From Lingula anatina (lineage: Eukaryota > Animalia > Brachiopoda): 64,000 nucleotides of DNA. The stretch lies in NCBI GenBank assembly GCA_051362555.1, contig CM120648.1, positions 10,226,587 to 10,290,586 on the forward strand. The letters are read 5' to 3'. Numbering within the stretch: the stretch's first letter is position 1; every line of letters starts with the position of its first letter. This document shows, in pieces, positions 2,397 through 64,000 of the stretch. The translations under genes and the position numbers were made by a program. The notes beneath the pieces are model-generated. The model made no database searches, was not told the DNA's origin, and saw only the letters and a list, made by a program, of their open reading frames with translations.

Positions 2397-3444
2397 TTAA
2401 TTGCAAGGGCCCAGGTCATCAATCTTAACCGACCCACTGCGAGCATTCATGCCGTCATAGATCCCTTCCACGCTGTACTTGTAGCTGTTGCCGTTCACAA
2501 GGTCGATCTGCATGTTGGCCTTGTACTCCGTGTCTATGGAGTCGGCGTACATGGTACCTGTGGCATACAGCTTTCGGTTTGGAGGGCACTTGATCGGCCA
2601 TTCCCACGTGCGCTGTTCCGTTGTCGTTGTGGACCTCCCGTATGAGGCACTCGCGGTGACCTTCCAGGTTGAACTGACCTCGACGTCTGCAACCCCTGGG
2701 ATACCCCCGGAGACCGTTGTCTGCAAAGAGTACTCCAAACCTGTGGTAATGCTCCACTGTCGCGTAATGGTGACGGATCGGGAACCCTTCACGGTGTAGG
2801 TCTGTTCCACGGACGATTCATTGGTGATCCTCTGCTGGACGACGGTTTCCGGGACCGAGGCGACAATCTCCGTGTCAAGATTTGGGTAGGTTACGTCCAC
2901 CAATCGTGCCTGCTTAATTGGATGTAGTATGGCGAACCCCAGACTGTCGACGTCCTCGCCCCCGGCGCCGAACATTCCGCAGACGATGCCGGAGCCCACA
3001 TCCGGCCAATAACGGCCGTTTTCATCCAACCAACGTGAGAAGATTCCCCAGTCGCGCCCTTTGTCCGTCTGCAACCAGATGGCGCCGAGACGATGATTCC
3101 CGCCAGAGCTGGTCTCTCCGCTGGCCTGGATGTTGAGCTTGGTCAGCTTCTCGCCGCTGTTCAAGCGAAACTCGCTGGAAGCTCCAGATCGCTTCCCAAC
3201 AAGGTGAGACTTCCCGTCGCTCATCCACATCTCCACTCCACGGATACGCCAATCGTCTTTCCAGGCTTTTAGCCTGGTCATAATGGCGCCGTCGTCCAGC
3301 CTTACGTACGTGAATGGCGTTCCGCCATTTCCGCCAGAGGCCTGAAAAGGAAAGTCAGGTCTCACTACTAATTACAATCCATGAAAATTTCCCTCCCAAA
3401 TCTCCCCCCCCCCCCCTCCAAAAAAAAAAAAAAAAAAAAAAGAA

Positions 3445-18718: not shown

Positions 18719-21700
18719 CTAATAGGTTGACAGTCGAAAGATAATGACGTCTCCAGGATTCGGGATATAGCCATCAACTCCTAGAATTCAAGAAGAAAAT
18801 AGCTTAATTGACTCGTTTGCTACGACACGAGTCGTATGCACCACATCTTGCAAGGTAAATTAATTTTGTCATTCATCCATTTATACCTGACTTTTATATC
18901 TATATTTTAAAATTAAATAAAAGCAACTACATGTGTGAATCAGACGCCAATAAAACATAAAATATAAAATAGCTAGAGGTTTTTAAAATATATTATTCTA
19001 AATGATTGACAAAATATTAAAAACGTATGGATAGAAGCATAGTAAAGGCATTATTAAATCAATCAATCAAATTTATTGACTATGCAAACAAATAAACGAA
19101 GCAATTTCAAATAAGCTAGATAAGATTAATTAAGGAATAAAGTTATAATTGAACCAAAAATTATAACATACTATGAATTGATCACAAACTAGTGCGGGTG
19201 CAAATATTTATAAACAAATAGCATACATACCCACTTCCAGTGGGGTGTCCGGTGCCTTAAGAATTTGCCAATATGTTCTCTTCTCTGGATCCTCCGATAT
19301 GCCGTTAATCTCGGTGATGTAGTGACCAAGGGAGGTGTCCTTGGCCTTGAAACTGAAAACAAGACCGACGAGATTAATTATTTACCAGTGTGATCGTTGA
19401 TCGCAACCTTTTTTTCGTCGTAATTTTTAAAAGATGCATTATTTGATATCATTGACAGAGTTATAAACTTATATCAATTTAATTGACAATTTTTTGACAT
19501 GTATAAAGTCCAGATTTATTACGCACTGTGCAAGTTAAAGTACATTTCTGTAAAACGAAAGGTTTAAAAGCAAAAGGTTTAAAACCCAAATGAAGGAATT
19601 TGTTTTTGTTATTTCGATATTTAATTAGCCTTGGAAAAAGTGAACGTAATAGAAATATTGGAAAATCAAGCAGCCTACCTGAAATCTGATACACTGTCCT
19701 GAAGAATACCCATGGAATCGTACAAGGATGATCCTACTGGAACGGTCACATAGTAACTCTGGTTTTCACTGTGTCCTTCTATATTAGCAACTACCTGGAT
19801 GGTGAATGTGAGTTGTGTGGGAGTTGTGGTCGTAGTTGGCGGAGCTTGAGTAGTAGTGAGCTTCTGACAGATATTGATGTCTCCCAAATCAGCGTATGAT
19901 TTGCCAGCAAGGGCGGGGAGAACCTGATTGGCAGCTGTCACTCCTCCAAACGATCCATCTGGCTCTGTTAAATTCAAGAGTGCAAGTAAGCTGTCCATTA
20001 GCTACAATTATAATCTTTACTTATGATCTAACATAATGCCTCAAAATATAAATAAATTCATAAATAGAATAAAATAAAAAATATAAAATAAATTGTCACA
20101 TCTCAGTAAAATGTTTTATAAAATACATATTTTTACCCCTTATGCATCAATGAAATAAGGAAAGTCTTTACTTACGTTGATAGGCCAAGAGGGTAAGTTG
20201 AGCTTTCTTCTTGATCAGTTTTCGACTGTTTTCATTATCTGCGTACAGAGCCTACAATAGCAAAAAATATCAATATACATTTACATATCATTACGTACAT
20301 GTGACGTCACAGCAACAGCAGAAGCAGTGGACTGACTCCGTGTCCGTGGTGTCTAAGTAAAGGCTTTTTTTGCAATAAAATTATCTTGTCGTTTAATAGT
20401 ATCAAAACAACCGCCTGGTTCGATATTTTAAAAAGTTAAAAACTATTACGACCTCGACCTTTGCACTGTATTGCCTTACAGGTAGTTCTATACCTGAACA
20501 GCCAGTCCGGTAGTGTATTGGTTGCCAAATGAACCATCCGGTTTGATATTAGACAGAATATACTGGACCCCAGTATTGATGGCAGGTATGACGTCAGATG
20601 CCCCAGTCCGGTCTCTCACACAACACAATGCAATCACTGATATTGCAGCTTCATCTGGAAACAGAGACAGACAACGGAAGTGAATCGTTTGCCAAAGAGA
20701 ATTAAAAAACGAAAGTGAAAGTGTATGGAAAAAGGTCAAGACGGTGGCTGAATTTAAACATGTAAATCAATTGGTTAAGTAACCAAACAACCATAAGAAC
20801 AACAACAAAAAAGAATAAAAGAAAAATGACTATCACAACAAATGTTAAAAAGAAAAAAATATGATAAAAATATGACATTACCAACTCCGAAAGTATAATT
20901 CCCCGCTCCATCCAGAAGACGTTTGTAGTACGTCTCGTTTATAGCACCAGAGTTGCACAGAGCTAGCACAGCCCAGCTGTAGGCGAAATTGTGGTTAAAG
21001 TAATACTTGGGAAAGTTGTTCATTTGGTTCATGAGAAGTTCTATAAGGTTATGGTCATAGAAATTTGCCGGGTTTTGACAGGTAGACACAAGGCCGTTGA
21101 TGAACTGGCCAAGTTTTCCGCCATACCAGGCGGCAGTGTCCAATCCTGGGTAGCTGCAAGAAAAAATATTTATCATTCTTATTATTCATTTATTTATTTA
21201 TTAGCTAATCAATTAATTAATCACTTAAAATAATTCTTATTATTACTAATTAATTATTGATTAACGCAGCATTATTTGTTATTAGACAATAAACTAAATA
21301 TTTAGCCAATAAATTGACTAAGCAAACCCAAGTAAATCCCTCCATAACTTTTTGCATAATTTTGCTAACAAACACACAAATAAGTAACTAATAATTAACA
21401 AAAAATTAATAAATGGTCATCACCAAAATATTATCAGTTTTCAGCCCTTTTCAGATCTAGCCTGAAATGTCATCAAAACCCAACGATATATCTTTTTGAC
21501 TTACTAGTAGACTCAGTAACTGGCCGACAAATAAACAAACGGAGGTAAAACACTTCCTGGACGAAGCTTACTACCCAGTACAAACTGTTACTGGTCAGAT
21601 ATCAACGTACTTGCTAATAGCTGCCAGGAGAACCAAATTCATTTCTTTGACGCTGGCGACGGTGTTTGGCTTATCGGGATTATACCAGCCACTTCCTTTA

Positions 21701-28411: not shown

Positions 28412-31086
28412 CTAATACTTAGACAGTCGGAAGATAATGATATCTCTGGGTTTCGGGATATAGCCGTCGACTCCTAGAATTCAAGAAGAAAATAATTAAA
28501 TTATAATTCGTTCGACATAAACACCAGTGTATGCATAACTAAATATAATTTAAATGATTACTAAAATATATAGAATGTATGGGTAAAAATACATGCATAA
28601 ATAAATCCATGGAGTAGCAATTGATTGAATATACAAACAAATAAATGAGGCAAATTCAAATCAGGTAGAACAAATAGATAAAGAAATACATTGACAATTG
28701 TACTAATACCTATTACATATAAACAATGTATCCAAAATTAGCACGGGTGCAAATAAAAAAGAGATAACATTTCGGTTACATACCCACTTGCAATGGGGTG
28801 TTCGGTGCCTTAAGAATTTGCCAATACGTTCTTTTAACTGGATCCTCCGATATTCCGTTAACCTCGGTGATGTAGTGACCAAGGGAGGTGTCCTTTGCCT
28901 TAAAACTATAGGCAAGATCAATGAAATTATTAATTTACCAGCTTGATCATTGATCACAAAATACTGTTTCGTCGAACGCTACAGTGTTTCGATGCCAATG
29001 CATTATTTTTATTTCAATAACGGACTAATTAACTCATTTCAATTCAATTCAATTACACGTAATTCCTGTACTAGTGCATGTATTTTGTACGCCATACATA
29101 AGGTCCAAATGTATTACGACCTGTTAAAATTTTGGTACATATCTGTGGAAAATCGCAAAATAGTGTAAAGATTTCACCCAAATGAATGGATTTGTATTCT
29201 CATTATGCTGTCATTAGCCGAAAAAAAAGTGAATTTCATATAAGAAATTTGAAAATCAAGCAGCCTACCTGAAATTTGATACTCTTTTCTGAAGAATATC
29301 CATAGAGACGTACAAGGATGATCCTATTGGAACGTTGACGTGGTAACTCTCTTTTTCATTGTGTCCTTCTATATTAGCAACTGCCTGGATGGTGAATGCT
29401 AGTTGTGTTGGGGTTGTAGTCGTACTGGGCGGACCTTGAGTAGTAGTGACAGGGGGCGTGGCCTTCTGACAGATCTTGATGTCCCCCAAATCAGCGTATG
29501 ATTTGCCAGCAAGGGCGGGGAGAACCTGATTGGCAGCTGTCACTCCTCCAAACGAACCATCCTGTTCTGTTAGAATCAAAAGGCACAAATAAGCTGTGTA
29601 TCATGCTACAATTTTAATTTATCCTTACATTCTAACAGAATGTCACAAAAAGTAGATAAAATAAATTGTCAAATATCAGTTTAATGTTATATAACATATA
29701 TATTATTCAGGGGCGAAGCCAGAGCTATTTTCTGACAGTCTTCCAAATTATCTTTGTTGATCCATGTTCCATTTTTGACCGTACTTCCGACAGAAAAATA
29801 AAATACCGGTAAATGCAAACTCGAAAAACTGACCGTCTCCCGGAAGACCCAGAAGACGGCCTCAATCCGCTCCTGTTTTTACCCCTTATGCATTAAGAAA
29901 GTCTTTACTTACGTTGATGGGTCAAGAGGGAAAGTTGAGCTTTTTCCTTGATCTGATTTCGACTGCTTTTATCATCTGCATACAGAGCCTAAATAACAAA
30001 AGATTTGAGCATTCAGAGCACAATACTTACTAATTTTGTGCATGAGCCCTGACAGGAAAAGGCCTTGGGAAAATTCCGTATGATCTGTGATATCCCATTC
30101 AATTATTATTTGCAATTAGATTAGTTTGTCTTTTACTGGTATTCAAACAACCATCTGGTTGAATATGAACATTGGATTAATGTGAAACATGTCATGACCT
30201 CGTCATATTTTACACTGAATAGTTTTAGCTGTATACCTGAACTGCCAGTCCAGTAGTGTATTGGTTGCCAAATGAACCATCCTTCTTGATATTCGACAGT
30301 ATATACTGGATCCCGGTGTTGATGGCAGGTGTGACGTCAGCGGCCCCTGTCCGGTCTCTCACACAAGACAATGCAGTCACTGATATTGCAGCTTCATCTG
30401 GAAACGGAGACAGGAAACGGAAGTGAAATCGCTTGCAGAAAGGGACGAAAAATGGAAAGTGTAAGTGTAATAGAAAGCAAAAGATTAAGAAGGTGGTGGA
30501 TTTGAACATGTAAGCAAATTTATTAATTGAACAAGCAACCATACGACCAATAAGGCATAAAATAAAATAAAAAGACAATCATGCACAAAACGATATTAAA
30601 TGGAAAAATATATGATAAAAAGAAGATGACATTACCAACTCCAAAAGCATAATTTCCAGCACCATCCACAAGACGTTTGTAGTACGTCTCATTTATAGCA
30701 CCAGAGTTGCACAGAGCTAACACAGCCCAACCGTAGGCGAAGTTCTGGTTAAAATAATACTTGGGAAAGTTGTTCATTTGGTTCATGAGAAGTTTTATGA
30801 GGTTATTGCCATTGAACTTTGTCGGATTTTGACAGGTAGACACAAGACCGTTGATGAACTGGCCAAGTTTCCCGCCATACCAAGCGGCCGTGTCCAAACT
30901 TGGGTAGCTGCAGAAAAAGTTACGCTTGATTCATTTATCTATTCATTCATTATTTATAAGTACGTGTATGTTATACAAATTAAAGCAGATACTATATATG
31001 GTGAATGTATATATTAAGAAGGCACTCAGAGAACGCAGACCTATCCATGGCAGCTAAATTCGTATTCTCGTTAATCGCTTATTTAT

Positions 31087-38448: not shown

Positions 38449-41400
38449 CTAATACTTAGACAGTCGGAAGATAATGACATCTCTGGGTTTCGGGATATAG
38501 CCGTCCACTCCTAGAATTCAAGAAAAAAATAATTAAGTTAACTACTTAAATCATAAACAATAGTGTATGCATTAATTCACTGAATTATTTATAGTAAACA
38601 TTTACCTTTTTATCCAAGTATACCTGATTTTTTTATGAAAAATTAGTAAAGAGATCTACAAATATGAGACAGACACAAACTAAATATAAAAAAGTTCAAG
38701 TAGCTATACAGGTAGGTACTTATCAGATATAATTTAGATGATTACTAAAATATACAGGACATACAGGAAAAACATAAGCATTAATAAACCAATTAAGTAA
38801 TAGGCCTAACTAATTGAGTAAACAGACAAATAAACTAGATAAATTAAAATCAAGTGCAACAGATTGATAAAGAAAAAAAAATTGATAACTGAACCAACAA
38901 CTATAACATATAATGGATTAATCCAAAATTAGCACAGGTGTAAATATCAATTAAGAGATAAAATTTCGGTTACATACCCACTTGCAATGGGGTGTCTGGT
39001 GCCCTAAGAATTTGCCAATACGTTTTCTTATCTGGATCCTCCGATATGCCGTTGATCTCGGTGATGTAGTGACCAAGAGAGGTGTCCTTAGCTTTGAAAC
39101 TAAAGGCAAGATCAACGAGATTAATGAACGAGCTTGGACATTGTTCGCAATTTTTTCGTCATGATTTTTTAAAATATAAATGTGACTCAATGCCATTATA
39201 CATTATTTGATTTCATTAACAGACCAATAAACTTATATCAATATTATTCACTTCAAAGAGCACACACAGAACAGCTGACTAACAGATCCGCGGTTCATAT
39301 ATTCGCTTCAATTCATTTATGAATTGGTACATGTATTTAGGCGTGCATAGGGTCCATATTTATTATGTCCTGTGCAAATTAAAGCAGTACATTTCTTTAA
39401 ATGTATATGTTAAAAGACAAAATATTTAATCCAAATGAAAGAATTTGTTTTCGCCATTAAGCTGTCATAAACCGTGAAAAAAGAGAACTTTATATTAAAA
39501 AATTGAAAATTAAGCAGCCTACCTGAAATCTGATACTCTTTTCTGAAGAATTTCCATGGAATCGTACAAGGATGATCCTATTGGAACGGTCACATAGTAA
39601 CTCTGGTTTTCACTGTGTCCTTCTATATTAGCAACTACCTGGATGGTGAATGTTAGTTGTGTGGGGGTTGTGGTCGTAGTGGGCGGAGCTTGAGTAGTTG
39701 TGACAGGGGGCGTGGCCTTCTGACAGATCTTGATGTCCCCCAAATCAGCATATGATTTGCCAGCAAGGGCGGGGAGAACCTGATTGGCAGCTGTCACTCC
39801 TCCAAACGATCCATCCGGTTCTGTGGAATTAAAGGGCACTAGTAAGCTATGTATCGAGCTACAATTATAATGTATCCTCGCAATGTAAAAGGTTGTCGCA
39901 AAAAGTTAATAAAAGAAAGAAATTGTCACAACACTGTTAAATGTTATACAAAAAATACATTTAACCCCATATGAATTCAGAATTCAGAAAAAATCTTTTC
40001 TTACGTTGATGGGCAACTAGGGTAAGTTGAGCTTTCTTCTTGATCTGTTTTCGACTGCTCTTATTATCTGCGTACAGAGCCTACAATCACAACGAACATA
40101 TAAATACACGCGCGTGAGCGCAGATTCAGGCATTTATAACACAATGCTGGCTGATTTTATACATGAGCCGTGACAGCAAAAGCGCTAAGAATTACCATAT
40201 GTGTGATAACCCATTCAATTTATTAACTGAATTCAGATTGTTTTGTCTTTCACTGGTATTTGAACAACGACTTGGTTCAATATTAACATGGAAGCAATGT
40301 AAAAAATGTGGGAACCTCGTCATATTTTACACTAAATAGTCTTAGTTGTATATACCTGAACGGCCAGTCCAGTAGTGTATTGGTTGCCAAATGAACCATC
40401 CGGTTTGATATTAGACAGTATATACTGGATCCCGGTGTTGATGGCAGGTATGACGTCAGCGGCCTCGGTCCTGTCTCTCACACAAGACAATGCAGTTACT
40501 GATATTGCAGCTTCATCTAGAAACGGAGACAGGATACGGGAATGAGATTTCAAAGTAGAATAAAAAACCAAAGTGAAAGTGTATGAGAAAAGCTCAAGAC
40601 GGTGACTGGGTTTAAACATGTAAATTAATTGCTTAAATAATCAAACAACCTTTCGGCCAACAGAGCAAAGAATAAAATGAAATAAGACAGTCAAGCCCAA
40701 AAATGCTAAAAAGACAAACATGACAAAAAATGCCATTACCGACTCCGAAAGTATAATTTCCAGCACCATCCACAAGACGTTCGTAGTACGTCTCATTTAT
40801 TGCACCAGAGTTGCACAGAGCTAGCACAGCCCAGCTGTAGGCGAAGTTCTGGTTAAAGTAATACTTGGGAAAGTTGTTCATCTGGTTCATGAGAAGTTCT
40901 ATAAGGCTATGGTCATAGAAATTTGCCGGGTCTTGACAGGTAGACACAAGGCCGTTGATGAACTGGCCAAGTTTCCCACCATACCAGGTGGCAGTGTCCA
41001 AACCTGGGTAGCTGCAACAAAAAGTTTTATTGATTAACGTATTTATTTATTTATTTATTTATTTATTTATCTGTACTTGTCAACCCTGTTTAAAAAACAA
41101 ACCAGGTAGAATTATATCATACAATTTATATTTTAATAAAATAGTTAAATATTAAATATTAGTTAAAACTACCCAGTATATACTGCAGGAAATGTTGCAC
41201 TTTATTGATCAATTTATTTCTAGACAAGTGAATAGACAATTAAAACCAAATAGAATCTTAGACCATAAATAAACCACCCAGCATTTAAAAATTATTAAAA
41301 GTTGGTTGTCAGATATCAACGTACTTGCTAATAGCTGCCAGGAGAACCAAGTTCATTTCCTTGACGCTGGCGACGGTGCTTGGCCTTTTCGGATTATACC

Positions 41401-45544: not shown

Positions 45545-47400
45545 ATGTATTTATTTGCAACTTAAAAACTTAAATTAAAAAAGGATTTTACAATGAAAAC
45601 AAATAGACGTGAGATGCACAATCTTGAAATATACTTGTAAGTGTTAAAATGATTTGATACACATTAAAAGTTCGTAAAAACCTCAGTTCTTAAAATTTGA
45701 TAAAGCCCATGGGATAAAAGTATTTGTCGATCATACAGTCCTCAGTTTTAGCACAGTGTAATTATAAACCCGCGCAAAGTGTAGAAACTTTCATTTACCT
45801 TTGGTAGCAAATGATGGATTTTGTGTCCTTCAGAGTACATGTTATGCAATAATGTTTTAGATAGTTCATCTCTTCTACAAGCAAGAGTGATAAGTTTACA
45901 TGTTTCAAGTGACCCATCATAGGGCAGCTCTGGGAATATAATCTTACATGCTCTAATCAGGATCGATTCAATTTTATCAACTTGTTGTTGTGTGAGACCT
46001 GGGTGCCACACCTGACATGCATATTCTAATGTGGGTCTGATTACTCATGTGTAAAAGCTTACAAGTTCATTGGTTGAAATACCCGCTCTTTTCAGAAGCT
46101 TAAGATTGTGTAGCCTTTTACTTGCTTTTTTACAAATATCACAGATGTGACCTTCCCAGCTCAAATCACTACTGATCCTAACCCCTAAGAAGACAGCAGA
46201 CCCACTCTCTCAATCCTTTGATTATCTACCAATAAGAGTGTAGTTTTGTGTCCTTTTTGGGAGAAATCAAATATGATCTCTTTGGTCTTGGTAGTATTTA
46301 TTGTTAGTTTATTAGCATGGGACCAGAGAGGAAGTTCTGTTGTTGCATCAGTGAAATTGTCTTGTATTTTGGTATTCCCGTAGCTTAGAATTGTGGTATC
46401 ATCTACATATTTGAATGTGTCACATTTGGTGCTCAGATCGTTAATCATAATGACAAATAAAACTGGACCATGTTTTGTGCCTTGTGGTACACCAGCATTA
46501 ATGCATTGCCAGTCTGATTTCACACTGCCCATTTTCACTATTTGTTTCCTCCAGTTATAAAGCTGTAAATCCAGTTTGAAATAATTCCTAGGATACCTAA
46601 TTCAGACCGTTTTTGATAAAGCAGGGTGTGGTCTATTCTATCGAATGCTTTGGTATAATCAACCAAAAGCATTCTGGCATATTGTCCTAGAGTGTCAGTC
46701 TGCCTTGCAATAAGGTCAAAAGCTTCGATCAGTGCGTATGTCGTACAGCTCCCCTTCATGCTGCCGAACTGGACAATATTATTGGTCACAATGTCCCAAA
46801 TCCATTTAACTATAACACCCTCCAATAACTTAGGGAGCACTGGAGTTAGAGATATGGGTGTAATGTTTGTCTCTATGGTCTTTGGGGGAATGCACTTAGG
46901 TAGTGGTGACACATATGCATGTTTCCAGAGTGGTCGGACACATCCTTCACGAACTGATGAGTTGCATATAGCACATACTGGGGCAGCTAGGTACTCTGCT
47001 AGGTCATGTAGGATACAGTTGGGAATTTCGTCGGGACCTGTGGACTTGTGTACGTTTACCTGGAGCAAGGCTTTTTCGACATCTTGTTTTGTGATGATAT
47101 ATGTGGCTGGTACAGGGTCTGCTGCTTCCACGTGTTTCGGTTCAAGTGGCACAAAGCCATTCGTGACAGATTGAAAGAAAGCGTTTATTTTCTGGGCTAA
47201 TAAGCTGAAATCACCATTGCACTCGCTGTTAGCCAAGCCCAGTAAGGAATTATTTTGTGTTGTTTGCCCTGTAAGCAACTTAATGTCTTTCCACCACTGC
47301 CTTGATGTACCGTCAGACAGGACGTTCAGTTTCCCTTCATAGAAGCTTTTCCGAGTTTTGGTAAGTCTGTTTACTCTGTTTCTGTCATGTTCTGTAGAGG
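45545..47400 (-). mobile_element. 5'-truncated, frameshifted CR1/L2-group LINE (reverse transcriptase)
   Basis: KSTGPDEIP, PISLTPVLPKLLE, LVDYTKAFDRIDH, GVPQGTKHGPVLF, KYVDDT and WHPGLT spread across three broken ORFs. Confidence 0.92.
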
Positions 47401-47693
47401 TTAGTCTGATTTCCCATCCAAGCACGTTGTCTCTTCTTAATTAAGTTCCTAAACTGATCATTGAATCATGGCTTTTCATTTATACCGTAATCGTTCATTA
47501 AATAGCATTACAATATCATTAAATATGATTAAAATATCTGCACTGATTTCAACTATTTTTTACTGTGAACGCTCATGGACTATTGTGGTCACACCCATTC
47601 TTTCTGTTATCGTTCAAAAGGCCAATATATTAGTACACAACATGTTGTTTTGTAACTTAAAATACACCCCTTATCAATCATTTTGTACACAAT

Positions 47694-48687
47694 TTAGTTT
47701 CCGTCTGTTGCCTCGACAGACACGCTGCTTTGATCAGACGGAGATTCAATACTATGGCCACTCACCAAGCTTCTTCCGCTACCACCGAAAATATGACTGT
47801 AGTTTTTGTCCTTTCTTAGAACTTTCATGCAATCATCATATTTAAGTTCTTTAAAGATTTTAGAGAGTTTAACAGCATCTCCATTATACACGATATTGAA
47901 TATCGTGTCTATAGTTTCCTCTTTCGTTGACCTGTCATCAGTGCATTGCTTGAGAACATGTCCCAAGCCATTCTTTTCAGCCAACTCGATATATCTGTCA
48001 TCTTGAGCCAACTTTTCTTGCAACTCCTTTATTATTGTACCCTCCAATGTTGTTACTTTGGTGTCAAGCCTGGGGTTCGATTCAGATAGTGGCTGTAAAA
48101 AAGTTGAAATGGTGAAGATTGGTCATTATAATACGTAGTGAAGGTTTCAACACGTTGCATCATTACGTTGTAGTGACGCAGAGTTTAATGTATCAAATAC
48201 GATAAATTCCCTGATGAAGTCTGTCAGGAGACGAAATATTTGCTGGTTAATCTCGCATAATATTTTGCAGTTACTGACAACCGAAACTTAACCTGTTTTT
48301 TTTATTTTTAATTTAAAAATAATATATAGCAACTACGACTGTTTAACATGACAAATGCCATTTCCATTCCAGGTGATGCTTTCATAAGAATGGATTAAAT
48401 AAGGTTTATATTATAATAATGTACTTTTCACGATGCAAAGATCCATATCCATATAGAGATTTCATGAAGAGGAAGAAAGAAAATCCACTCTAAACTCTCT
48501 ACCCTCATATACTTTCAGTGGATATTAAATAAACGTTACCTCGACAACACCGCTGTAAAGGAGAGAAACTATGACGGGCTGAACTGCTTTGTCTTTTTCG
48601 TGTTGTATTGATGCAGTAAATTCAATTTTGTTCGCACTGTCAGGAAGACTGGTAAACGTGAAGTTTGCCTCACAAATAGTGATAAGC
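47694..48687 (-). pseudogene. Remnant paralog of the receptor 3' end: truncated UPA exon + death-domain exon
   Basis: Exons ~48540..48687 (ICEANFTFT...IQHEKDK...VE|GT) and 47694..48092 (DDRYIELAEKNGL...KELKYDDC) align to 55615..55791 and 54585..54980. No ZU5 or TM exons were found upstream. Confidence 0.7.
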
Positions 48688-49067
48688 CTGAGAAGGCAAT
48701 AGTTTCTGATGTACATGTACAGTTAATTCGTGGTATGTACGCATTCGGTAATAGGCCTACAGATAAGGATTCAACCGTTAAAATGGTAGGAAAGGTTTTA
48801 TTGAATTGTATAAAAGGTGGTTAAATATTCAATATGTAAAACAAAGAAAATAGCAGATGCATTGGCTATGAGAATCTGGTAGATGGTTGTAATTTGAAAG
48901 TGTGTGAAGTACAGATAATGCGTGGTACGTACGCATTCTGCGACGCAGACAGGCACGCAACAGCTCATACAATGTATCAAGGCCACGTCACATTGCATTT
49001 TGTGGCTGTGTACACATTTGGACGCTTACAATCGGAAATTTAGCATAATAACAACATTGAAATTTAC

Positions 49068-49251
49068 CTCTGTTACATTTTTTACAAAGCTCATCGATAT
49101 CGTCGGCAAGGCAATGCAATTTCTTGGAGGCTTCTTCAGCGCTTTGAATGAGCTCGCGATGGCCATTTTCCAACTCTTTAGCCAACTCCAAAGGGTCATC
49201 AAGCTCCATTTCTACATCAAACAATTCTTTATCACTACCTAGCTTGGCAGG
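49068..49251 (-). pseudogene. Isolated exon with an apolipoprotein-L-like helical motif
   Basis: ttttag|CCT...AGAG|GTAAAT; PAKLGSDKELFDVEMELDDPLELAKELENGHRELIQSAEEASKKLHCLADDIDELCKKCNR. Its phase-1 donor is incompatible with the next exon. Confidence 0.45.
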
Positions 49252-54584: not shown

Positions 54585-57500
54585 TTATTCGGGCTGATTT
54601 TGATCCGTTGTCCCTTCAAGCACATTGCTGTTATCGTCAGTCGGTGTTCCAATACTTTTTCCACTTGCCGAACTTTTCCCCTGTTCAATACAATAATGAC
54701 TGAAGTTTCTATCCTCTTCTATAGCCTTTGTGCAGTCATCATATTGAAGAGCTTTGAATTTTTCAAAGAGTTTGAAAACATCTCCTCCATACAAAACAAG
54801 GAGAATTTTTTCTATAGTTTCTTTTGTAGTGGCACCGGGGGTAAGTTGTCCCCATTCCATACTGCCTCTTAACTCGAGATGCCTGTCATTAATACTCAGT
54901 AGCGTGCATAGTTTTTCAATTGTTGTTTTTTCCAATGTTGGCGGTTTCTTTTCCAGTGTGGAGTAGCGTTCGTGAGATGACTGTTAGGATAAAAATATTA
55001 AAAAGATTAAAAGGTGAAAATTACAGCGGCGGTTGCAACACAATCCGTCACCAGGGCCCAGCTTCACTGGATAATGCTATCCTATGGATAACACTATCCA
55101 TTGAATACAAATGTTTTTCACTGGACAGTAATTCTGAAAATAGCAGCCATTTTTATCCTTTGGAAAGAATTTTTAGAAACCAAAATATATATCTAGGGTT
55201 TACCCATATGATACCTAACCAGAGGAAAACAATATCATCTAAAGTGTTGATGAAACCGGGCCCAAGTTTAAAACATTCTATACTTATAAACGGTTTAAAG
55301 TAAAAAATTCCAGTGCATTCCGATCTGTTAAATCATAAGCACGCACAAAACAGACATGTCTTGATCAATCACAAAAATGCACATATTAACCCTGGGAAAA
55401 CAAGTAATCATAACACTGACAATAGGTAGCCCTGTGTATTTATACAAAACAGTGGTCTCTAACAAACATTAAATGAAAAATTATAAGGTTGGGATTACCA
55501 TAACAGAAATGAAAGATCCAGCCCCTTTTTCCAAGGCGATGGGAGAAAAGTGTCCCCCCCCCCCACACACACACACACACACAAACCTCTAGTGGACTTT
55601 AAATCGTACGCTACCTCATCACTGTCAGCAGAGAGTGAAACATTTCCCAACTCAATTTTGGGTTTGTCTTTTTCGTGTTCTATTGTAACAAAAAATTCTA
55701 CCACGTCCGCATTGTGGTTGGTAAACGTAAAGTCCGCCTTGCAAATATCAAAACTTCTGCCGTTGTCGAAACATCTTTCCGTTAGTATTTTCTATAAAGA
55801 AAATAATTAATCACAAACCAAATGCATGATAAAGAGGAAGTCATTCATTAATTATAAGCTTATTCTGACTTTAAAATCATGGTTCTATTAATTCCTCGTG
55901 GAACTGAAACGGATATGAAGGTTTTGATATATATACAATAGTCATTGAGGCAAAAAAAAAAACTGTTAAAGGTGAGATGTTAAGCCATACATGCATTTGA
56001 TATGAAATATCATAAAACCGAAAAGGTTTGACGTTTCATTTTAATCAGCCTATATTAGCGACTAAAATTCTCACCTGAAAAATGGTTACGTTAGCTTTCA
56101 TCCGAGTCAATACACTTTTGTTACTTCCAATTGCCATTTGTACATGTTTTTTGTAACTTTTATAAGGTAAATAAAAAATCCAACCTGTTCTTGAGAATGT
56201 TGCATCGTAGGTATGTCCATTTTGATGATGATGGTCTTCATGTCAAATGTACCGTGGTAGTCCGTATTTAACAAACATATAACGTGCTCATTCTCCCACT
56301 TCTCCCTTTTAGTATCCTAGGTGATTGAGGAAAAATCCAGTTCCAGTAACAGCCGACTGGTAAGACTACAGAGTACAGTATATTAGATTTTCAAGATATG
56401 TGCCACTTTTCTACTCTAGCTGTCTCTAAATTTTAGCAAAATTACCTGTCAGCTCCATACGTTTGACACAAAATGCGGTGATAGAATGATTCACAGCTTT
56501 TTGATTATATCATAAAAAGTATTTAACTAGTGTAGCATACGTCATTTGCTTTAACACAGTAATACTTACTTTGAATCTTTCTGTGGGAACTAAGCACACT
56601 TGGATGTTGTTACCAAGTCTTTGCAGTGATTTTGGTCCAAATACTGCCGCCGTCAAACTGATTCTACTCCTGCTTCCAAATGCAGCCTGCATTTCTTGCT
56701 CACATTCACTCTGGCCACCACTAAAATGTTCCAAAGCGATATTTTTCATGTCTCCATTAATCACATAAAACAAATTGCTTTCTTCCCATTTATCCTGTTC
56801 GTACAAGCTGGTATCCGTCTCCCGAAAAATAGAGTAGCCGTCTGTCGGAAATGAAATAACTGCAGCACGATTTAACTTTAGACCATGTGGTCCATATCTA
56901 AAATGATATCCCTGTCCTGGGCCTCCTTTTACGTAAAGATAGACTAAGTACAAATCATCAGTTGGCATTGAGTCTGGTGGTATGTATAAACTGACCAGGC
57001 CTACGTTGATCTGAGCGCCTTCTTCTTTTGACACAATGCATGCACCAAACGACCGGTCATCACTCTTGTAGACTACTTTTCGGAAGTCGATTGGTAACCA
57101 ACCATTTTCTCTAGAAACTTCAGCCTGTTCACATACATCTAGAATGTGTTTGCATAATTGAGGGTAAGCTAATCGGCTTTTGGGATCCTGCGCCTCTCTT
57201 CGAAGATCTGACGTTTTCAAAAGTTTGTGGTCGTTTTCGTGTGTTAAACTAAAGATAGATACAAATTGTTGAAATGTATAGGAGGTATTAAAACGTCAAC
57301 AAAATATTAAGAAACTTTTTAAAGTGGACTTGCCAAAAACTATACATTCACAGCATTTCAATGAACCAGGTTGGGAAATGTTAATGTTGTTTAAATAACT
57401 CACCACTGAAAAAAAGATATTTGGCAAATCCCAAGACCATATGGATAGCAATGCAATTGATTTAATTTTCAAGTTCCAATTGTTAATAGGGCATAACGAT

Positions 57501-59875
57501 AGCTACGAAAGAAAAAAAAAACAGTTAAGTAGGCTTGAGATATCCAAAGGACAGGGTTCTTTTAAACGGTCTGTCTAACTGTAAAAACCTGTTTACCTAT
57601 TTTATTGATGTTGTTGTAAAATTACTAACGTTATGCCCTTATTAGAATTTTATAATTCATGGGCCTTCAATTGGGCTATTTTAATAGCTGACAGTTCTTA
57701 AAGCCATACATGTAGCATACCTGTTGTTATCATCAGTGAACGAAGCAGAACCGGTGTTGTATCCTACAGCAGAATCGGAATCAGCCTCGCTTCGACTGTC
57801 TATACTTGAAAAAACCGGCCATGTTTCCATAAACTGCTTTTCCTTGGTTATTGCTTGGAAAAAATAATGCTCATTAGCTGGGACCACCTGGGCATTTGAA
57901 AGTAGTGTGGTGCGTTCTGTTTGACCGATGAACATATCTGTTGTGTCATTTGGTGTACTGTGATCTTGATTATTGTCATGGATTCGACACCCGACTTCCG
58001 GCAAAGTATCAAGCAAATCATCCCCCGAAGTATCTGGCAAGGTGTCCGGCAAGGTATTCAACAAAGTATACCCTTTTTTATACCGTTTTGCTGGAATATA
58101 ATAATGTAAACGTGAAAATGTTACGTTTGTTGTATTATTACAAACCGGAATACGCTGATGTCCCCAAAATGTTGGTACATACATGACCCCACTTGGTCAT
58201 TTCAGTCAGTAAAATTACTTGGTCGCTTGAGGGTAAATACTCAGGTATGCATGTACATGTATTTGTAAGAATATTTCATAATGGTAGCTCCGCGTCTCAA
58301 TTCTGTGAACTCATGCGAATCCTTATATGGCTAAGTAGTCTTATATCGGATTTCCAATGCACCTGGCATATCTGGCAACGGGGAGCAATGTTAACACAAG
58401 CAGGAATGGGTAATATTCCGTGCCGCGCTCCCTTGTTGATTAATTTTATTGCTTTTTTTATTTTCAACGTTTTTCATAAGACCTTTGAAGATTCATTTCA
58501 GTAGAGAGCAACCGTTCCCAGTATCTAGCTGTAGTGATCAGTTCAGCAGGTGAGATATTACGCCACTTCAGGTTTACTTTAAGATTGGCTTTGACGCGAT
58601 TCCTTGGCCTCTGTTTCTCTTCAAGCTACAGTGATTTGTGGGAGCAAAGAGATTTGAAAAACGCGTATCTATCAATAAATAAACATTTTCCACGCATCAC
58701 GGTGACTTAACGGTCAGGAACGCGTGCTTAGAATCGATATGTAGAGTGAAACCAAGAGCGAAATTCCGTTAACTTGAAAAATGACTACAAATAGTGGTAG
58801 ACGTTCGAAGTCGAATTACACCAATTTTTGTCCCTCACATGTATTGTACAAATGATATACAATGAAAAAGGCCATCAATATTGAAGGTACATGTAAATGC
58901 CCTGAAAAAGTCTAAAATACGAAAAATCATGATGCACTTGTATCATCCTTTTGATGCAAAAGTGTATAAAAAATTGTTTAAAACTGTATGCCACTGAACT
59001 GTATATAATATTACGCTACACCGTGCCTCCAGTACCACAATCCCGAGATGACCTTGAATATTATCAGGCATTTTAAATCGCAAATTAAGCTGTTTATACC
59101 ATTTCATATTGCATTTAATCATCCACAACAAACATCTTTTCAAAAGCGGCCTCAAATTGATCCTTACCTTTACAGCGTACAACCACAGCATACAAGACAG
59201 CAAAGAAAAGAATCGCTACAAAGAGAGCAATGTACCCAACGTCGCTTGCAAGAGCTAAAATAAAAAACACAACGTCTTTTATAGTGCGATATTGAACTCC
59301 AAATTATTACAAACAACATATATTGTTTAGAAAATGATTCAGACACGCATAGGTTAGCGTACTTTATCGAATTAACAAAATATTTTGTCAAAAACATAAG
59401 AAATACTGTGTATTGTATACAATTAAGCTAACTTTGAATATACCATTACATTATTTCACTTGAATTATAATAGCTATAATGTAATATGTTTATTCACAAA
59501 ACAGCATCATGAAACCACCAATTCACCTTTTACGTCCGAAAACTTTGCCAATCTGGGTAATAGCATACACGGGTCATAATTGTCAAGTCTTAAACCAAAG
59601 TAGAAGTTATCTTCATCCCTGCGTATGTAAATACAAACGTTTTATTAATTCAGTAAACTGCAATATAAAATGTTCTTATTTAAAAGTGTCCTGGACACCA
59701 GCACATTCACAATGGATTATATATATATATATATATATAGAAAGACAAGAAAACTGTTATCTCCATGTTGATTAATATAAGGCCCTACAGCCGTGTTCTT
59801 GTCTTTCTGTATCAGATACCCATGGTCCGTCATCATGGGTAGAGCACGCTTCCAAAGTGAATCGATTACATTTTC

Positions 59876-59911
<36 letters not shown>

Positions 59912-61135
59912 TCTTGCTCAAAATGGCTGGAACAAGGAAATTCTGGGATGCATTTCGCCCTGTTTCTTTCATTATAATTGTTATTACCAATATTATACCG
60001 TTTATATTGTTTTTAAGCAAATTAAAATATGTGAAGCTGGGGGATTAGCAAAGTTAAAGAGAAACAAATAATGCATATCTAAGAAAAGCATTAATTTATT
60101 TAGGGTTTTTGCCTCATGCCCTCAAAAATGAGTATTATTTACACAAAAGTTACAGGTAAAAAAATTAGCATAAATTTGCAATGTGATTGACAATATATAT
60201 GAAATTTGGGGAAATTGTCATGAAAACCCTTCACACTTCATTATTAATCTCAGTAGCGGGGATACTCCACTGCGAGTTTGGATTATGACCACCAGACGGC
60301 GTGGCATACTGTGATCTAGAGTTACAGCTCTTTATAGAGGATTTCTGGTCCATTCAACTTGAATGGCGTCTCGAAGATGATCTAAATTTGCAGCGGGAGG
60401 GTTTCTCCTTTAAATTACACTACCAAGTTCGTCCCACTTGTGCACAATTGGGTATGCATTTGGGCTGCTTTCTAGCTGTGGCATCAGCTGAATGTTGTTT
60501 TGGCGGATATAGTTGTCAATTAAGCGGGTTGTATGGGGAGTTGCATGATTATGGTGCAATCTTCAATTGTGTCTGTATATTCCTTTAGAGAACGGCTACA
60601 GGTTCTGTTGAAAAAAATGTCCCTGTATCTGGCAGTGTTAATGTTTTCATCAGGAGGAAGCAATGGGCATATGCCGTTGCTGCAAATGGCACCCAAACAT
60701 GTACGGAACCATCTCTTCCAGATATTGTTTCTTGGATATTTTCAGTCAAGGAGTCTACGCACTCTCATTCTTCAATCTGTTGGATACAGTAGAAAACGGG
60801 ACTCATCTGCAAACACCACGTAGTTCCAATGTTGGACCGTAAGGTTACGGTTCTGCCGCGCCCGCTGCAGCCTGCCTGCGGTTTACCGTCTGGCGAGACT
60901 ATCGAGCCAAACGTCGGGCCTGTAGCTTTGGTCCGCTCTCTTCTTGCCAGCTCGATGATGACACAATCACTTCTGGTTTTTGTACTTCGCGGTCATTAGT
61001 TCACATCTAGTACATGTTACCTAATGTCGTGCCAATTGGTTTAATGACTCTTTTTTCGTACCAAGTGTTGCGTTTTAGAAATACGAATAAAATATCCCAT
61101 TAAGTTATTTTCGACGTGTACCAACCATTTTTGGC

Positions 61136-61197
<62 letters not shown>

Positions 61198-63319
61198 CAT
61201 TGGTCAAAAAGATTGTCCCACACCCATGTGCATTTATTTATAAATGACCACATCACAGGTGAAAATTGTTATAAATAGTGATTTTCATTCCGGATACCAC
61301 AACTGACATGGTACAGAAAATACAAACTAGCGGTTAAGATATCCATATTTAATACCTTTTATGCATATTTATCACATGTACCCCCTCAAATGGGACGTGG
61401 CACGAATTGTTGCAGAAACCCAAGGTTGTGAGGCTGCAGAGACCATCTTTGAGTCCTGCTAATAAAGCTACTGAGCACCCGTGGCACGAATTGTTGTGTG
61501 CAATCTACAGGAAAACCAAACTCCAAATAGTCCGGACCAATTCCTTCAAGCTCTTTAGGAAACATGGTACAATATCCCACAAAACAGAATTGGTACCCTT
61601 GTTGAAGGCAGCGGCGCCGTCTACAGGAGATAATTACTGTATGCGGTAAACCCACACGCTAATACACAAATGATCTCTAACAAGCACACCCTAATGCTAG
61701 ATGTGCGTAAATTTTGTGACATTTGGTGGTTTTTATTTTTAATTCAATGAACATTTCTTTACATCTGTGGAAATGACAGTGGAACATCGGATGCGAGGGG
61801 GTACATGTGATAAATGTGAATAAATGGTATGAAATATGGATATCTTCACCGCTAGTCTGTATTTTCTGTATCACTAATCATGTAAGTTACAGTGTCTGGA
61901 ATGAAAATCACCATTCATAACAACTTACCCCTGAGATGTGATCATTTATAAATAATAGCACATGAAACTGGGGGTGGGACTTTTTGACCAATGTTGCATA
62001 TCTACAGTGTATCTCTCTATATATAAGACGTGTAATAGTAATTACAACCGCCAAACCTCGATTTAACTCCTATTTCAAAATTGATATATCCACATATAAG
62101 GCCTTCACCACATCATATAAATAAAAACCCCTGAAGACGCAATGAAACCGGTCGGGGCAAAATAACTGCTGTTCTTTATTTCTTTTATCATATATAATAA
62201 TAATAATAAAAAAATTATTTTAAGTCAACATCCATTTAAAATGTTCAGTAGACTTTACATAAAATATCATAAATAATAATACATAAAATATCATAAATAA
62301 AATCTAGGTAAAACAGCCATTATTCCATACAATTAAATGCAATTAATACAAGATTTATAAAACCAATTAAGAGTTAATCAAAATATTTCCTAAAAAGGTA
62401 TGTTTTGATTTCTTTTTTTAAATGTTTGGTAGACTGAATTGCTCGGATTTCCAGCGGTAATAGATTCCATTCCTTTGGACCTGCAGCTTTAAAAGATATA
62501 TCACCGTAGGTTTTTAATCGCATTTTTACTGGGTTGAGTAGCAATTGGTCTACAGACCGCAGATTTCGCATTGGAACATAGTGACTGACTAATTCATTGA
62601 TGTAGATTGGTGCCAATCCATAAAAAGCATCGTGAGTAAAAACTAAAAATTTGAATAAAATTCTGCCTTGTATAGAGGTAGCCAGTGTAAACTTTTTAAA
62701 CTGGGGAGATGTGTATGCTTGTGGATGTCCGAGTTAATAATCTGGCCGAAATATTTTGAATGCGCTGCAGTCTGGCAATTTGTTTCTTTGGACAACCGTA
62801 TAAAATGAAGTTGCAGTAATCTAATCGAGATGTAACTAAACAATTTATGACTGTGGCTGCAGCAGAGTCGGACAACTGATTGCGAATTGCACTTATGTTC
62901 CTAATGTTAAAAACCGCTGACCTGCATACACTGGCAATATGTTTGTTCATACAAAGCGATCCATCTAAAAATACACCAAGATTTTTTGCATAGGTTGTTG
63001 GCTTAATAATGCTTGATCCAATTTTGAGCTGAATTTGTTGTGCTATCATACGATTATGTGGCTGACTTATTACCAAAAGTTCAGACTTTCCATCGTTAAT
63101 TTTCAACTTATTACTAATCAGCCACCTGCGAAGATCGTCAATACATTTAGACAATATATCAATAGATATATAAATATATTACCCAGCAAAACAGTCACCA
63201 CATATTGTGTCTCTGGTTAAATTACAAGGCTCTTTGGTTTCTCTGTACAAGTCAAGACAGTCGGTGCAATTTCGCCATGACATTTCGTCGAAACTGAAGT
63301 ATCGTTGGAACTCGCACAC
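54585..63319 (-). CDS. Single-pass receptor: TNFR cysteine-rich domain - stalk - TM - ZU5 (HF|S) - UPA - death domain (>=689 aa; 5' end unresolved)
   Basis: Exons 63183..63319 (VCEFQRYFSFDEMSWRNCTDCLDLYRETKEPCNLTRDTICGDCFAG), 59527..59618, 59168..59254 (TM YIALFVAILFFAVLYAVVV then RCK), 57721..58090, 56570..57248 (ZU5: VSLYIPP, GPHGL, LEHFS; UPA start AAVFGP), 56185..56316, 55615..55791, 54585..54980 (death-fold). All GT-AG, phases 2,1,1,2,0,0,0 match, 2070 nt without internal stop. Confidence 0.8.
59910..61140 (-). mobile_element. Decayed Tc1 transposon within (TA)n, inside a receptor intron
   Basis: WNYVVFADESRFLLYPTD*RMRVRR, GSVHV, PPAANLDHLRDAIQVEW, MPRRL...SRY*; degenerate TIRs abut TA tracts. 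Confidence 0.85.
61195..61998. mobile_element. Tc1-like MITE with ~190-bp TIRs
   Basis: AACATTGGTCAAAAAG...ATCACATGTACCCCCTC / GAGGGGGTACATGTGAT...TTTTTGACCAATGTT; adjacent to TA. Confidence 0.8.
62128..62157 (+). ncRNA. Minimal type-I hammerhead-ribozyme-like motif (Penelope-type), helix II degenerate
   Basis: CCC-CTGAAGA-cgcaat-GAAA-CCGG-TC-GGG: catalytic boxes, palindromic helix III (ACCGGT) and CCC/GGG helix I. Confidence 0.45.
62340..63140 (-). mobile_element. L2-type LINE 3' fragment in a receptor intron
   Basis: KLKINDGKSELL, KNLGVFLD, SRLDYCN, LQRIQN, LHWLP, RNLRS, AGPKEWNLLP. Confidence 0.88.
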
Positions 63320-63699
63320 CTGTGTATCAAACAAAAGACCGTTTTAAATTTGATAATTTGGCATCAATACCCCAAAAACAAACTATCAGCTTAAAAAGAT
63401 GAATAATGTGCACTGATATCTTAATTAATATGATCCGCTAGCCTAACTAGAAAACTGCCTTATATGGTACGTTCTAGTTAAGTATAACCATACAAGTTAT
63501 GAAAAAGCATTACAAACTTAACAAACCGTGCAATGACCTCGTCATCTAAGAACAGAAATTGAAACCCAACAAACAGTGCTTTTAACTGTGCATGTGAATT
63601 GATTTCAGACAAATCACTGTGTGTTGGAATATTCGATTTGTTTTTTTTTTTATCCAATTCATTTTTTACAAAGATGTGTCTGTACATATAGCCGTCAAC

Positions 63700-63752
63700 T
63701 GCGTCTGTCGTCGCCGTCGCCGCTGTCGTCGCCGTCGCCGCTGTCGTCGCCT
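63700..63752. repeat. 18-bp GC-rich tandem repeat (CTGTCGTCGCCGTCGCCG)n, probably inside an interspersed repeat
   Basis: Visible directly. Confidence 0.85.
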
Positions 63753-64000
63753 TGCACTTTCACCGATAAGTGGAAAACCTGTTTACCTTTTGGCTTGAAA
63801 CATACAGCGCTGTTGAATATTCATAATACGCAGGTCAAGTTAAAAAAAATCAGCATGACCGGGGCATTTTCATAAAAGTTATGCTGTTTTTTTTTCACTT
63901 TTTTCAGTATAAATGCAAAACCGATAACACGATAAGTAGAAAACCATTTGAACTTTTGGCTTGAAACTGCAGGTCAAGCGCGAAAATCAGCATGATCAGG

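Follow-up and report, generated by a model that had tools for sequence, protein, structure and literature searches.

Gene model, expression and a downstream copy

The window analyzed here, i.e., the whole stretch of 64,000 nucleotides, carries on its minus strand eight exons that join into a single open frame of 689 amino acids plus stop (2070 nt). All seven introns are of the GT-AG type, and the phases at the exon ends are, in order, 2, 1, 1, 2, 0, 0, and 0. The preliminary description of this DNA had proposed such a set of eight exons with matching phases and an uninterrupted frame, which the DNA confirms. Exon 1 (63183..63319; aa 1-46) encodes a predicted TNFR-type cysteine-rich domain (CRD) with two N-glycosylation sequons, and exon 2 (59527..59618; aa 46-77) encodes a stalk. 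The sole transmembrane helix (aa 82-103) is found in exon 3 (59168..59254). Exon 4 (57721..58090; aa 106-229) leads from juxtamembrane basic residues into an acidic low-complexity linker. Exon 5 (56570..57248; aa 229-455) comprises a short helical lead-in, a ZU5 domain (~aa 291-417), and the beginning of a likely UPA domain, whose middle and last parts would be contributed by exon 6 (56185..56316; aa 456-499) and exon 7 (55615..55791; aa 500-558), neither of which has a family match. A predicted death domain (~aa 572-650), a polar tail, and the stop are located in exon 8 (54585..54980; aa 559-689).

Open, phase-compatible candidates for five exon slots were ranked by a simple splice score based on consensus frequencies. 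The model exon came first in four of these slots: exon 2 (among 175 phase 2-to-1 candidates), exon 3 (among 44), exon 6 (among 27 phase 0-to-0 candidates), and exon 7 (among 41). Exon 4 ranked fifth of 81, and three of the four better candidates use the same donor and differ in the acceptor alone; the choice of this acceptor is less certain. The donor of exon 3 is the strongest in the gene. An alternative gene model that lacked exon 6 and had an additional short exon separating exons 7 and 8 was dropped due to stops. No start codon or signal exon is present in the last 680 bases of the window, upstream of exon 1. The model, without start codon or signal peptide, is therefore 5'-incomplete, and both lie outside the window.

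Expression was sought in eight RNA runs, of each of which 6-26% was read. None of the seven junctions was crossed by a splice joint in these runs, the search covering exon 1 in four of them. This includes the junctions 63183/59618, 59527/59254, and 59168/58090, by which the preliminary description had proposed to verify the model; exons 2 and 3 had no coverage in the four runs aligned to the whole gene. Exonic reads were few overall, with roughly one pair for every 12 million reads. In each of runs X1 and X2, exon 5 received about one pair, whose strand is the one expected for the gene in most stranded libraries, and X3, X4, and X5 showed no depth in this exon. In X8, three bins had depths of about 45, 138, and 74 bases, the second being twice the 69 bases of exon 7 in that bin, which indirectly fits one fragment spanning exons 7 and 8. 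Reads at 55065-55100, 58178-58238, 61.8 kb, 62-63 kb, and 63668-64000 were set aside as repeat-derived partial matches.

About 7 kb downstream, on the same strand, tblastn revealed a partial duplicate of exon 7 (48540..48689, minus strand; 50% identity over 34 aa) and a duplicate of the death-domain exon 8 (47694..48092, minus strand; 39% identity) with an open frame and a phase-0 acceptor. The duplicate retains the exon 7/8 boundary and its phase. Between the death-domain copies, dN is 0.52 and dS 1.07, giving a dN/dS of about 0.5. The exon 7 duplicate has a phase-0 donor, as exon 7 does, and a likely acceptor of phase 2, so that it was rejected as an alternative 3' end of the gene.

The outer domain and the membrane helix

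In the standard CRD of TNFRs, six cysteines are paired C1-C2, C3-C5, and C4-C6. The domain in exon 1 is a weak match to Pfam TNFR_c6 (E 7.8e-4; 20.2 bits against a cut-off of 29.4), with five of the six cysteines in register and Trp15 (TGG at 63277) at the place expected for C2; the codon differs by one base from a cysteine codon. The cysteine pattern reported in the preliminary description lies at aa 18-46. When a looser CRD spacing is allowed, the six frames of the window contain a single match, and such a match turned up in 2 of 100 shuffled windows. The spacing presumably resembles that of TROY in the EDAR/XEDAR/TROY (EXT) group. A search of exon 1 against PDB sequences returned no TNFR.

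The tryptophan at a disulfide position bears on whether the gene, as a paralogue within a family that evolves fast, could be decaying or serve as a decoy, barely expressed and with an outer domain that may have lost ligand binding. The scarcity of reads, the adjoining truncated duplicate, and a sequence too diverged for Pfam would all be in line with such a fate. However, 2070 nt remain open across eight exons with good splice sites, the His-Phe-Ser motif described below has been retained, the dN/dS between the death-domain copies is about 0.5, and the expression figure derives from a fraction of each run. Decay is thus regarded as rather unlikely.

The window contains about one and a half CRDs. 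Exon 1 closes on an unpaired Cys43, which opens a further half-domain, and exon 2 contributes exactly one cysteine, Cys63, together with a Phe-Tyr pair, and is likely to hold the second half of this split module. From their positions, Cys43 and Cys63 could pair across intron 1. No direct splice from exon 1 to exon 3 is in phase. Exon 1 might nevertheless be foreign to the gene, the protein then being an UNC5CL-like, signal-anchored ZU5-UPA-death-domain protein that starts from or near Met64 in exon 2. UNC5CL has exactly such a layout devoid of an ectodomain, exons 1 and 2 are not linked by any read, the 3.6 kb intron between them contains a LINE fragment, and the donor of exon 1 ranks last among the seven (top 17%). 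Against this, the sole CRD pattern of the 64 kb is located just upstream, with the strand shared and the phase compatible, the cysteines on both sides of the intron complement each other, and the full layout is present in coral gene models. A foreign exon 1 is held to be quite improbable. Exon 1 is presumably joined to the remaining exons, and the receptor may sense a ligand.

The membrane helix (aa 82-103) has a hydropathy of 2.86 over 19 residues and is the only strong one, the next best value elsewhere being 0.92. In the predicted-splice model, basic residues at aa 104-111 lie on its inner side, and the transmembrane helix with a positive-inside flank that had been described for this protein is thus substantiated. 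The modelled ectodomain consists of the CRD and a short stalk and, within the window, lacks the two Ig and two TSP1 modules of the UNC5 type.

Cytoplasmic linker, ZU5 domain and death fold

The linker separating the helix from the ZU5 domain measures about 185 aa. No TRAF6 or minor TRAF motif occurs in the protein, and the linker is devoid of TRAF motifs. Two TRAF2-like matches are located within folded domains. Two DxxD sites are observed in the linker versus 1.9 expected (P 0.59).

The ZU5 assignment of the preliminary description is confirmed by a profile derived from 40 Pfam-ZU5 domains of bacterial origin. Among 674 ORFs of the window, the exon 5 ORF was its sole match (E 4.1e-6; next 0.42), and the score of 22.5 bits was reached by none of 1000 shuffles, the best of which gave 7.3. 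The Atlas values for exon 5 were 0.95 for ZU5, 0.88 for the ZU5+UPA of UNC5B, and 0.87 for FIIND. The Pfam ZU5 profile gave an E of 0.27 on a trimmed piece of exon 5. A single-sequence structure model of this exon had a pLDDT of 37, and Foldseek is uninformative on such a model.

The ZU5 domain contains the motif His403-Phe404-Ser405 (HFS; 56720..56728, minus strand), a predicted self-cleavage site with the cut between Phe and Ser. The chemistry of HFS self-cleavage has been described (PMC9162469, section 6). The motif aligns with the HFS columns of the bacterial profile, i.e., it occupies the homologous ZU5 position, and HFS is present in 22 of these 40 domains. It is the only such motif in the protein; within 20 residues, one would arise by chance with a probability of about 0.002. 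The searches gave no sequence relative with which its conservation could be tested. An intact HFS at the homologous position points to self-cutting of the PIDD1/UNC5CL/CARD8 type and not to a dependence receptor of the UNC5 type; by its sequence, the protein is a predicted self-cutting receptor of the former kind. The HFS motif is absent from the preliminary description.

The two residues following Ser405 are Gly-Gly, whereas the ZU5 profile has aromatics there, which makes for an unusual last ZU5 strand and a cut that might fail to take place. The receptor could accordingly be real and uncut, its ZU5-UPA-death-domain module forming a closed UNC5B-like switch that is opened by loss of ligand or by a caspase cut within the linker, where two DxxD sites are available. 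A closed conformation of the supramodule is possible without cleavage (PMC10084454). However, the motif, whose Phe position is occupied by Leu in UNC5B (PMC3210808), is intact here, and the number of DxxD sites equals chance. Such an uncut switch is judged unlikely, and the dependence-receptor output that had been suggested finds no support, as canonical UNC5 does not self-cleave and the HFS motif is intact in the present protein.

In the ZU5-UPA-death-domain supramodule of UNC5, UNC5CL, PIDD1, and ankyrin, a UPA domain directly follows ZU5. The Pfam and NCBIfam profiles, searched with the three exon pieces separately, and the structure searches gave no UPA match. The distance from Ser405 to the death domain is 167 residues, compared with 158 in CARD8 (S297 to the CARD at 455) and 194 in PIDD1 (S588 to ~782), and the stretch has a beta-type periodicity of 1.0 versus 0.76. 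On spacing, periodicity, and the Atlas lead of 0.88, aa 418-558 are likely to be a UPA domain. The UPA claimed previously thus fits in length, place, and beta periodicity but not by any profile or structure match.

The AlphaFold model of exon 8 (pLDDT 72) has four helices, the first of them long, and not six. Its best Foldseek match is the Pelle death domain (TM 0.61, E 1.6). In VIA, 48 of 50 rows were death-fold proteins and the top ten all belonged to the death-domain family; the best Z was 9.5 (rmsd 3.4, 84 aligned), which is below about 13, the value under which the tool advises caution with helical bundles. The Z values were 9.5 for Pelle, 8.4 for IRAK2, 8.2 for both MyD88 and FADD, and 7.5 for both UNC5H2 and the PIDDosome. 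The structure matches confirm the predicted C-terminal death fold, as had been claimed, but no preference for PIDD emerges from them. Exon 8 had no Pfam or NCBIfam death-domain match, and neither exon 5 nor exon 8 had a relevant match among PDB sequences. Of the HMMER families that had been suggested for verification, TNFR_c6 was therefore found under its cut-off and ZU5 at the E value given above, and UPA and Death were not found.

Relatives, known systems and a possible mode of signaling

Searches for relatives among longer proteins yielded none of 406 candidates at E 0.001 and none of 225 at E 10 for exon 5, and no candidate for exon 1. HMMER against 1.84 billion representatives gave three matches, which were rejected as noise: the two examined were long bacterial-type repeat proteins, and one was scanned and lacked ZU5. 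None of 74 metagenome contigs held a relative. The layout itself is not new, since it is already recorded in gene models of Acropora digitifera that share the domain order of this gene (PMC4979521, Quistad and Traylor-Knowles 2016). Table S1 of that study lists ZU5 in 10 TNFR entries, all from Acropora, two of which are ordered TNFR-ZU5-death: 07000Acd (TNFRSF 43-134, ZU5 251-311, Death 548-620) and 02522Acd (TNFRSF 62-146, ZU5 354-444, Death 704-775). Its main text mentions ZU5 zero times. The statement in the preliminary description that TNFR-ZU5 combinations had been noted in invertebrate surveys was right, which makes the find less surprising. The spacing from ZU5 to the death domain, 297 and 350 residues in the coral models and about 280 here, leaves room for a UPA domain. 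The Acropora entries are CDD matches only, with no UPA, HFS, or function given, and the likeness is one of domain order. Among mostly titles and abstract openings, a literature search gave no paper on a TNFR-ZU5 receptor and no functional study; Liao 2014 and Quistad 2014 may show the layout. We regard the gene as a new and divergent member of a receptor type that is on record yet uncharacterized.

UNC5CL (ZUD), in which a membrane helix precedes a ZU5 that cleaves itself, a UPA, and a death domain (PMC10084454), matches the arrangement predicted for this gene, but it lacks an ectodomain, whereas the present model includes a CRD of the TNFR kind and its linker is longer. PIDD1 (HFS) and the FIIND proteins NLRP1 and CARD8 (SFS) are cut ahead of the last ZU5 strand and give a UPA and death-fold fragment similar in length to the one predicted here. 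These sensors, however, are cytosolic and contain LRR or NACHT parts. Two ZU5 domains are present in PIDD1, while here one follows a membrane helix. UNC5A-D, like the protein predicted here, are type I membrane proteins with cytoplasmic ZU5-UPA-death domains, but their ectodomain is made of Ig and TSP1 modules and not of a CRD, and the canonical members do not self-cleave (PMC10084454). Death receptors and the EXT group share with the predicted protein the CRD ectodomain, the single membrane helix, and the C-terminal death domain, and differ from it by the predicted ZU5-UPA inserted between membrane and death domain and by the second CRD cysteine missing here. Within the EXT group, a death domain is found in only 3.4% of the receptors (bioRxiv 10.1101/2021.12.26.474206).

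Taken together, the eight predicted exons somewhat more probably than otherwise encode most of a single-pass TNFR-type death receptor with a predicted self-cutting ZU5. By analogy with PIDD1, UNC5CL, and CARD8, the chain would be cut at His403-Phe404/Ser405 on folding, the halves would stay together, and ZU5 would restrain the UPA-death-domain part. Before engagement of the outer domain, this fragment might be retained beneath the membrane. As in TNFR biology, a TNF-family trimer may cluster the receptor, and clustering, or loss of the membrane half, would expose the UPA-death domain and seed a platform for death-domain adaptors. NF-kB-type inflammatory signaling would be the most likely output, and caspase activation is possible. 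UNC5CL reportedly has an IRAK output.

Vertebrate death receptors signal by clustering of their death domains, and NLRP1, CARD8, and PIDD1 by release of a UPA-death-fold fragment that has been cut beforehand. Both routes would be united in one chain that combines an intact HFS site with the outer domain of a TNFR, and a clean question would arise, namely whether a ligand controls the release of the fragment. There might even be an overlooked invertebrate class of self-cleaving death receptors, in which a TNF-type ligand controls the release from the membrane of a pre-cut UPA-death-domain fragment and firing resembles that of NLRP1/CARD8, although this broader proposal is tentative and somewhat doubtful. 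Should the host be a bilaterian whose CRD is of the TROY/EDAR type, this design would predate the cnidarian split or would have been rebuilt by exon shuffling. As about one quarter of the coral TNFR entries carry ZU5 (10 ZU5 rows, 40 TNFRs; PMC4979521), the answer would bear on coral stress and immune signaling as well. Such receptors escape annotation because no Pfam domain is above cut-off and four of the exons are below the length that an ORF scan can catch.

Gene model and transcription

Reconstruction from the window DNA places the eight exons of the receptor gene on the minus strand at 63319-63183, 59618-59527, 59254-59168, 58090-57721, 57248-56570, 56316-56185, 55791-55615 and 54980-54585. 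The spliced model has 2070 nt, encoding 689 residues and a stop codon, and all seven introns are GT-AG, the same count as in the preliminary description. The 5' end of the gene is placed beyond the window, because the frame opens at a phase 0 acceptor without Met and the last 680 bases of the window hold no convincing signal-peptide exon. As a chance test, all splice sites were scored with consensus frequencies, and open, phase-compatible exons were enumerated for five slots. By splice score, exons 2, 3, 6 and 7 ranked first (among 175, 44, 27 and 41 candidates, respectively), and exon 4 ranked fifth of 81. The exon 7-8 junction gains independent support from a partial tandem duplicate of these two exons 7 kb downstream (47694-48092 and 48540-48689, minus strand), since it retains the exon 7 donor and exon 8 acceptor in unchanged phase. 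Both frames of the duplicate are open. No copies of exons 1-6 were detected between 41000 and 54500. As a gene model, the feature is real. It is highly divergent: sequence searches (exon 5 against longer proteins, exon 1, protein representatives, metagenome contigs) gave no relative. Its gene neighbors and the style of the introns suggest that the host is an invertebrate animal.

Eight of nine RNA sequencing runs (X1-X8), with 6% or 25-26% of the reads of each, were compared with the locus, four against exons 2-8 and four against the whole gene. In these reads no splice joints were listed within the gene, and exons 2-3 had zero depth. X1 and X2 each contributed about one pair to exon 5, with the strandedness expected of the gene; depth there was slight in X6, X7 and X8 and nil in X3, X4 and X5. 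The three-bin depth of X8 is consistent with a single fragment spanning exons 7-8, an indirect sign under the tool threshold, and the ~295 bases that this run places in the bin of exon 1 are indistinguishable from the adjoining LINE. The locus seems to be transcribed at a very low level. That it is a decaying or decoy copy is judged improbable. At 63668-64000 lies a dispersed repeat that contains a short tandem unit; diverged, strand-biased RNA reads derived from its other copies pile up here in large numbers.

Domain composition

Exon 1 matches Pfam TNFR_c6 with E 7.8e-4 and 20.2 bits, below the 29.4 cut-off. The spacing of the proposed TNFR-type cysteine-rich domain (CRD) is found at a single place in the window and turns up in 2 of 100 shuffled windows; five of six cysteines are in register, the second position being Trp15 (TGG, 63277). 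We presume a likeness to TROY/EDAR. An additional cysteine (C43) lies close to the end of exon 1, and exon 2 contains a Phe-Tyr pair and a single cysteine (C63). Both exons may form one CRD half-module split by an intron, which is the best DNA argument that they belong together; an UNC5CL-like gene to which exon 1 does not belong is judged improbable. A single membrane helix follows the CRD at aa 82-103.

For ZU5, UPA and Death, pieces of the model gave no Pfam or NCBIfam match above cut-off; the sole Pfam match of a trimmed piece (aa 290-400) was ZU5, with E 0.27. In the ESM Atlas, the top cluster for the inner part was ZU5 (0.95; 166 of 256 features common), with leads to UNC5B ZU5+UPA (0.88) and FIIND (0.87). 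For an independent check, Pfam-ZU5 matches were gathered in two sets of bacterial genomes (9 of 401 and 88 of 301 carried one), and the 40 loci listed yielded a profile lengthened beyond the Pfam model end. Among 674 window ORFs it matched the exon 5 ORF alone (E 4.1e-6; next 0.42), a score reached by none of 1000 shuffles, which bears out the ZU5 assignment. Two short helices, assigned to no family, are predicted directly before ZU5 (~57216-57112, minus strand; aa 241-275) from a low-confidence model and helical periodicity. In a Pyxidicoccus assembly, one contig of 356 bases carries a match to a Bacteroidales-type 16S primer and is probably contamination.

The likely UPA is the weak link of the domain reading: its length and beta periodicity fit, and there is no direct match. 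Ser405 lies 167 residues from the death domain, against 158 in CARD8 and about 194 in PIDD1. Exon 8, folded together with the duplicate, gave four helices, the first long (pLDDT 72). In Foldseek, the Pelle death domain came top (TM 0.61; E 1.6, alone not significant). In VIA, 48 of 50 rows were death folds, the top ten all of the DD family, with a best Z of 9.5, modest for a helical bundle. This clear enrichment in the modelled structure upholds the death fold claimed for exon 8, which lacks a Pfam Death match; the matches are too similar in score to single out an adaptor.

Putative self-cleavage and known systems

His403-Phe404-Ser405 aligned to the HFS columns of the bacterial profile. PIDD1 is split between Phe and Ser through attack of its HFS serine on the bond before it (PMC9162469). 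In CARD8, the two parts remain associated after a cut located ahead of the final ZU5 strand (PMC3210808), and self-cleavage is described as kept in UNC5CL and absent from canonical UNC5 (PMC10084454). Because PIDD1, CARD8 and UNC5CL cut themselves while canonical UNC5 does not, we lean towards a receptor that would be pre-cut at the predicted HFS site, its UPA-death fragment retained by the membrane half and exposed upon ectodomain clustering. Gly-Gly directly follows Ser405, where the bacterial profile has aromatic residues; a switch that does not cleave is nevertheless unlikely. The linker contains neither a TRAF motif nor an excess of caspase sites, so the suggested dependence-receptor output is unsupported. 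Beyond the favoured pre-cut receptor, an overlooked invertebrate class of self-cleaving death receptors, in which a TNF-type ligand would control fragment release, is a tentative possibility.

A term search of the main text of PMC4979521 returned no ZU5; its Supplementary Table S1 has 10 ZU5 rows, all from Acropora digitifera (40 TNFRs), in line with the TNFR-ZU5 combinations noted in some invertebrate surveys. Two of them, 07000Acd and 02522Acd, share the TNFRSF-ZU5-Death order of the receptor, whereas in the remaining eight, including one id given twice and one with overlapping coordinates, ZU5 is not followed by a listed death domain. In that table, the sets for sea urchin, amphioxus, oyster and Nematostella have zero ZU5 rows. 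Amphioxus grafted a TNFR ectodomain to another output, a cDNA-confirmed TNFR-caspase (PMC2575513). No TNFR-ZU5 protein appears in the sections consulted of the PITA preprint, PMC11874512, PMC11087794 and PMC8195603. The architecture was already recorded in coral gene models, yet is apparently unstudied; an intact self-cleavage motif in such a receptor is added here.

Neighboring features

Just upstream of the duplicate exons, a coding-looking helical stretch of 59 codons (49069-49245, minus strand) ends in a good donor. It has no meaningful Pfam match and could be the N-terminal part of a separate gene using the duplicate death domain, with phases that do not fit directly; by eye, we take it to resemble apolipoprotein L. 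Broken LINE reverse-transcriptase fragments lie on the minus strand at 45748-47440 (RVT_1 match) and 62374-63178 (named by eye, without Pfam match), the latter with its start immediately behind the donor of exon 1. A transcobalamin/intrinsic-factor-like multi-exon gene is present in three tandem copies at ~19675-21185, 29265-30930 and 39519-41046 (minus strand); exons of the last match Pfam Cobalamin_bind, and the others were assigned by ORF-list likeness. Two near-identical natterin-like ORFs (2397-3371 and 12287-13258, minus strand) combine a jacalin lectin with an aerolysin-type ETX/MTX2 domain, and the second matches the solved natterin-like proteins 4zno (E 2e-44) and 5zu4 (E 1e-42).
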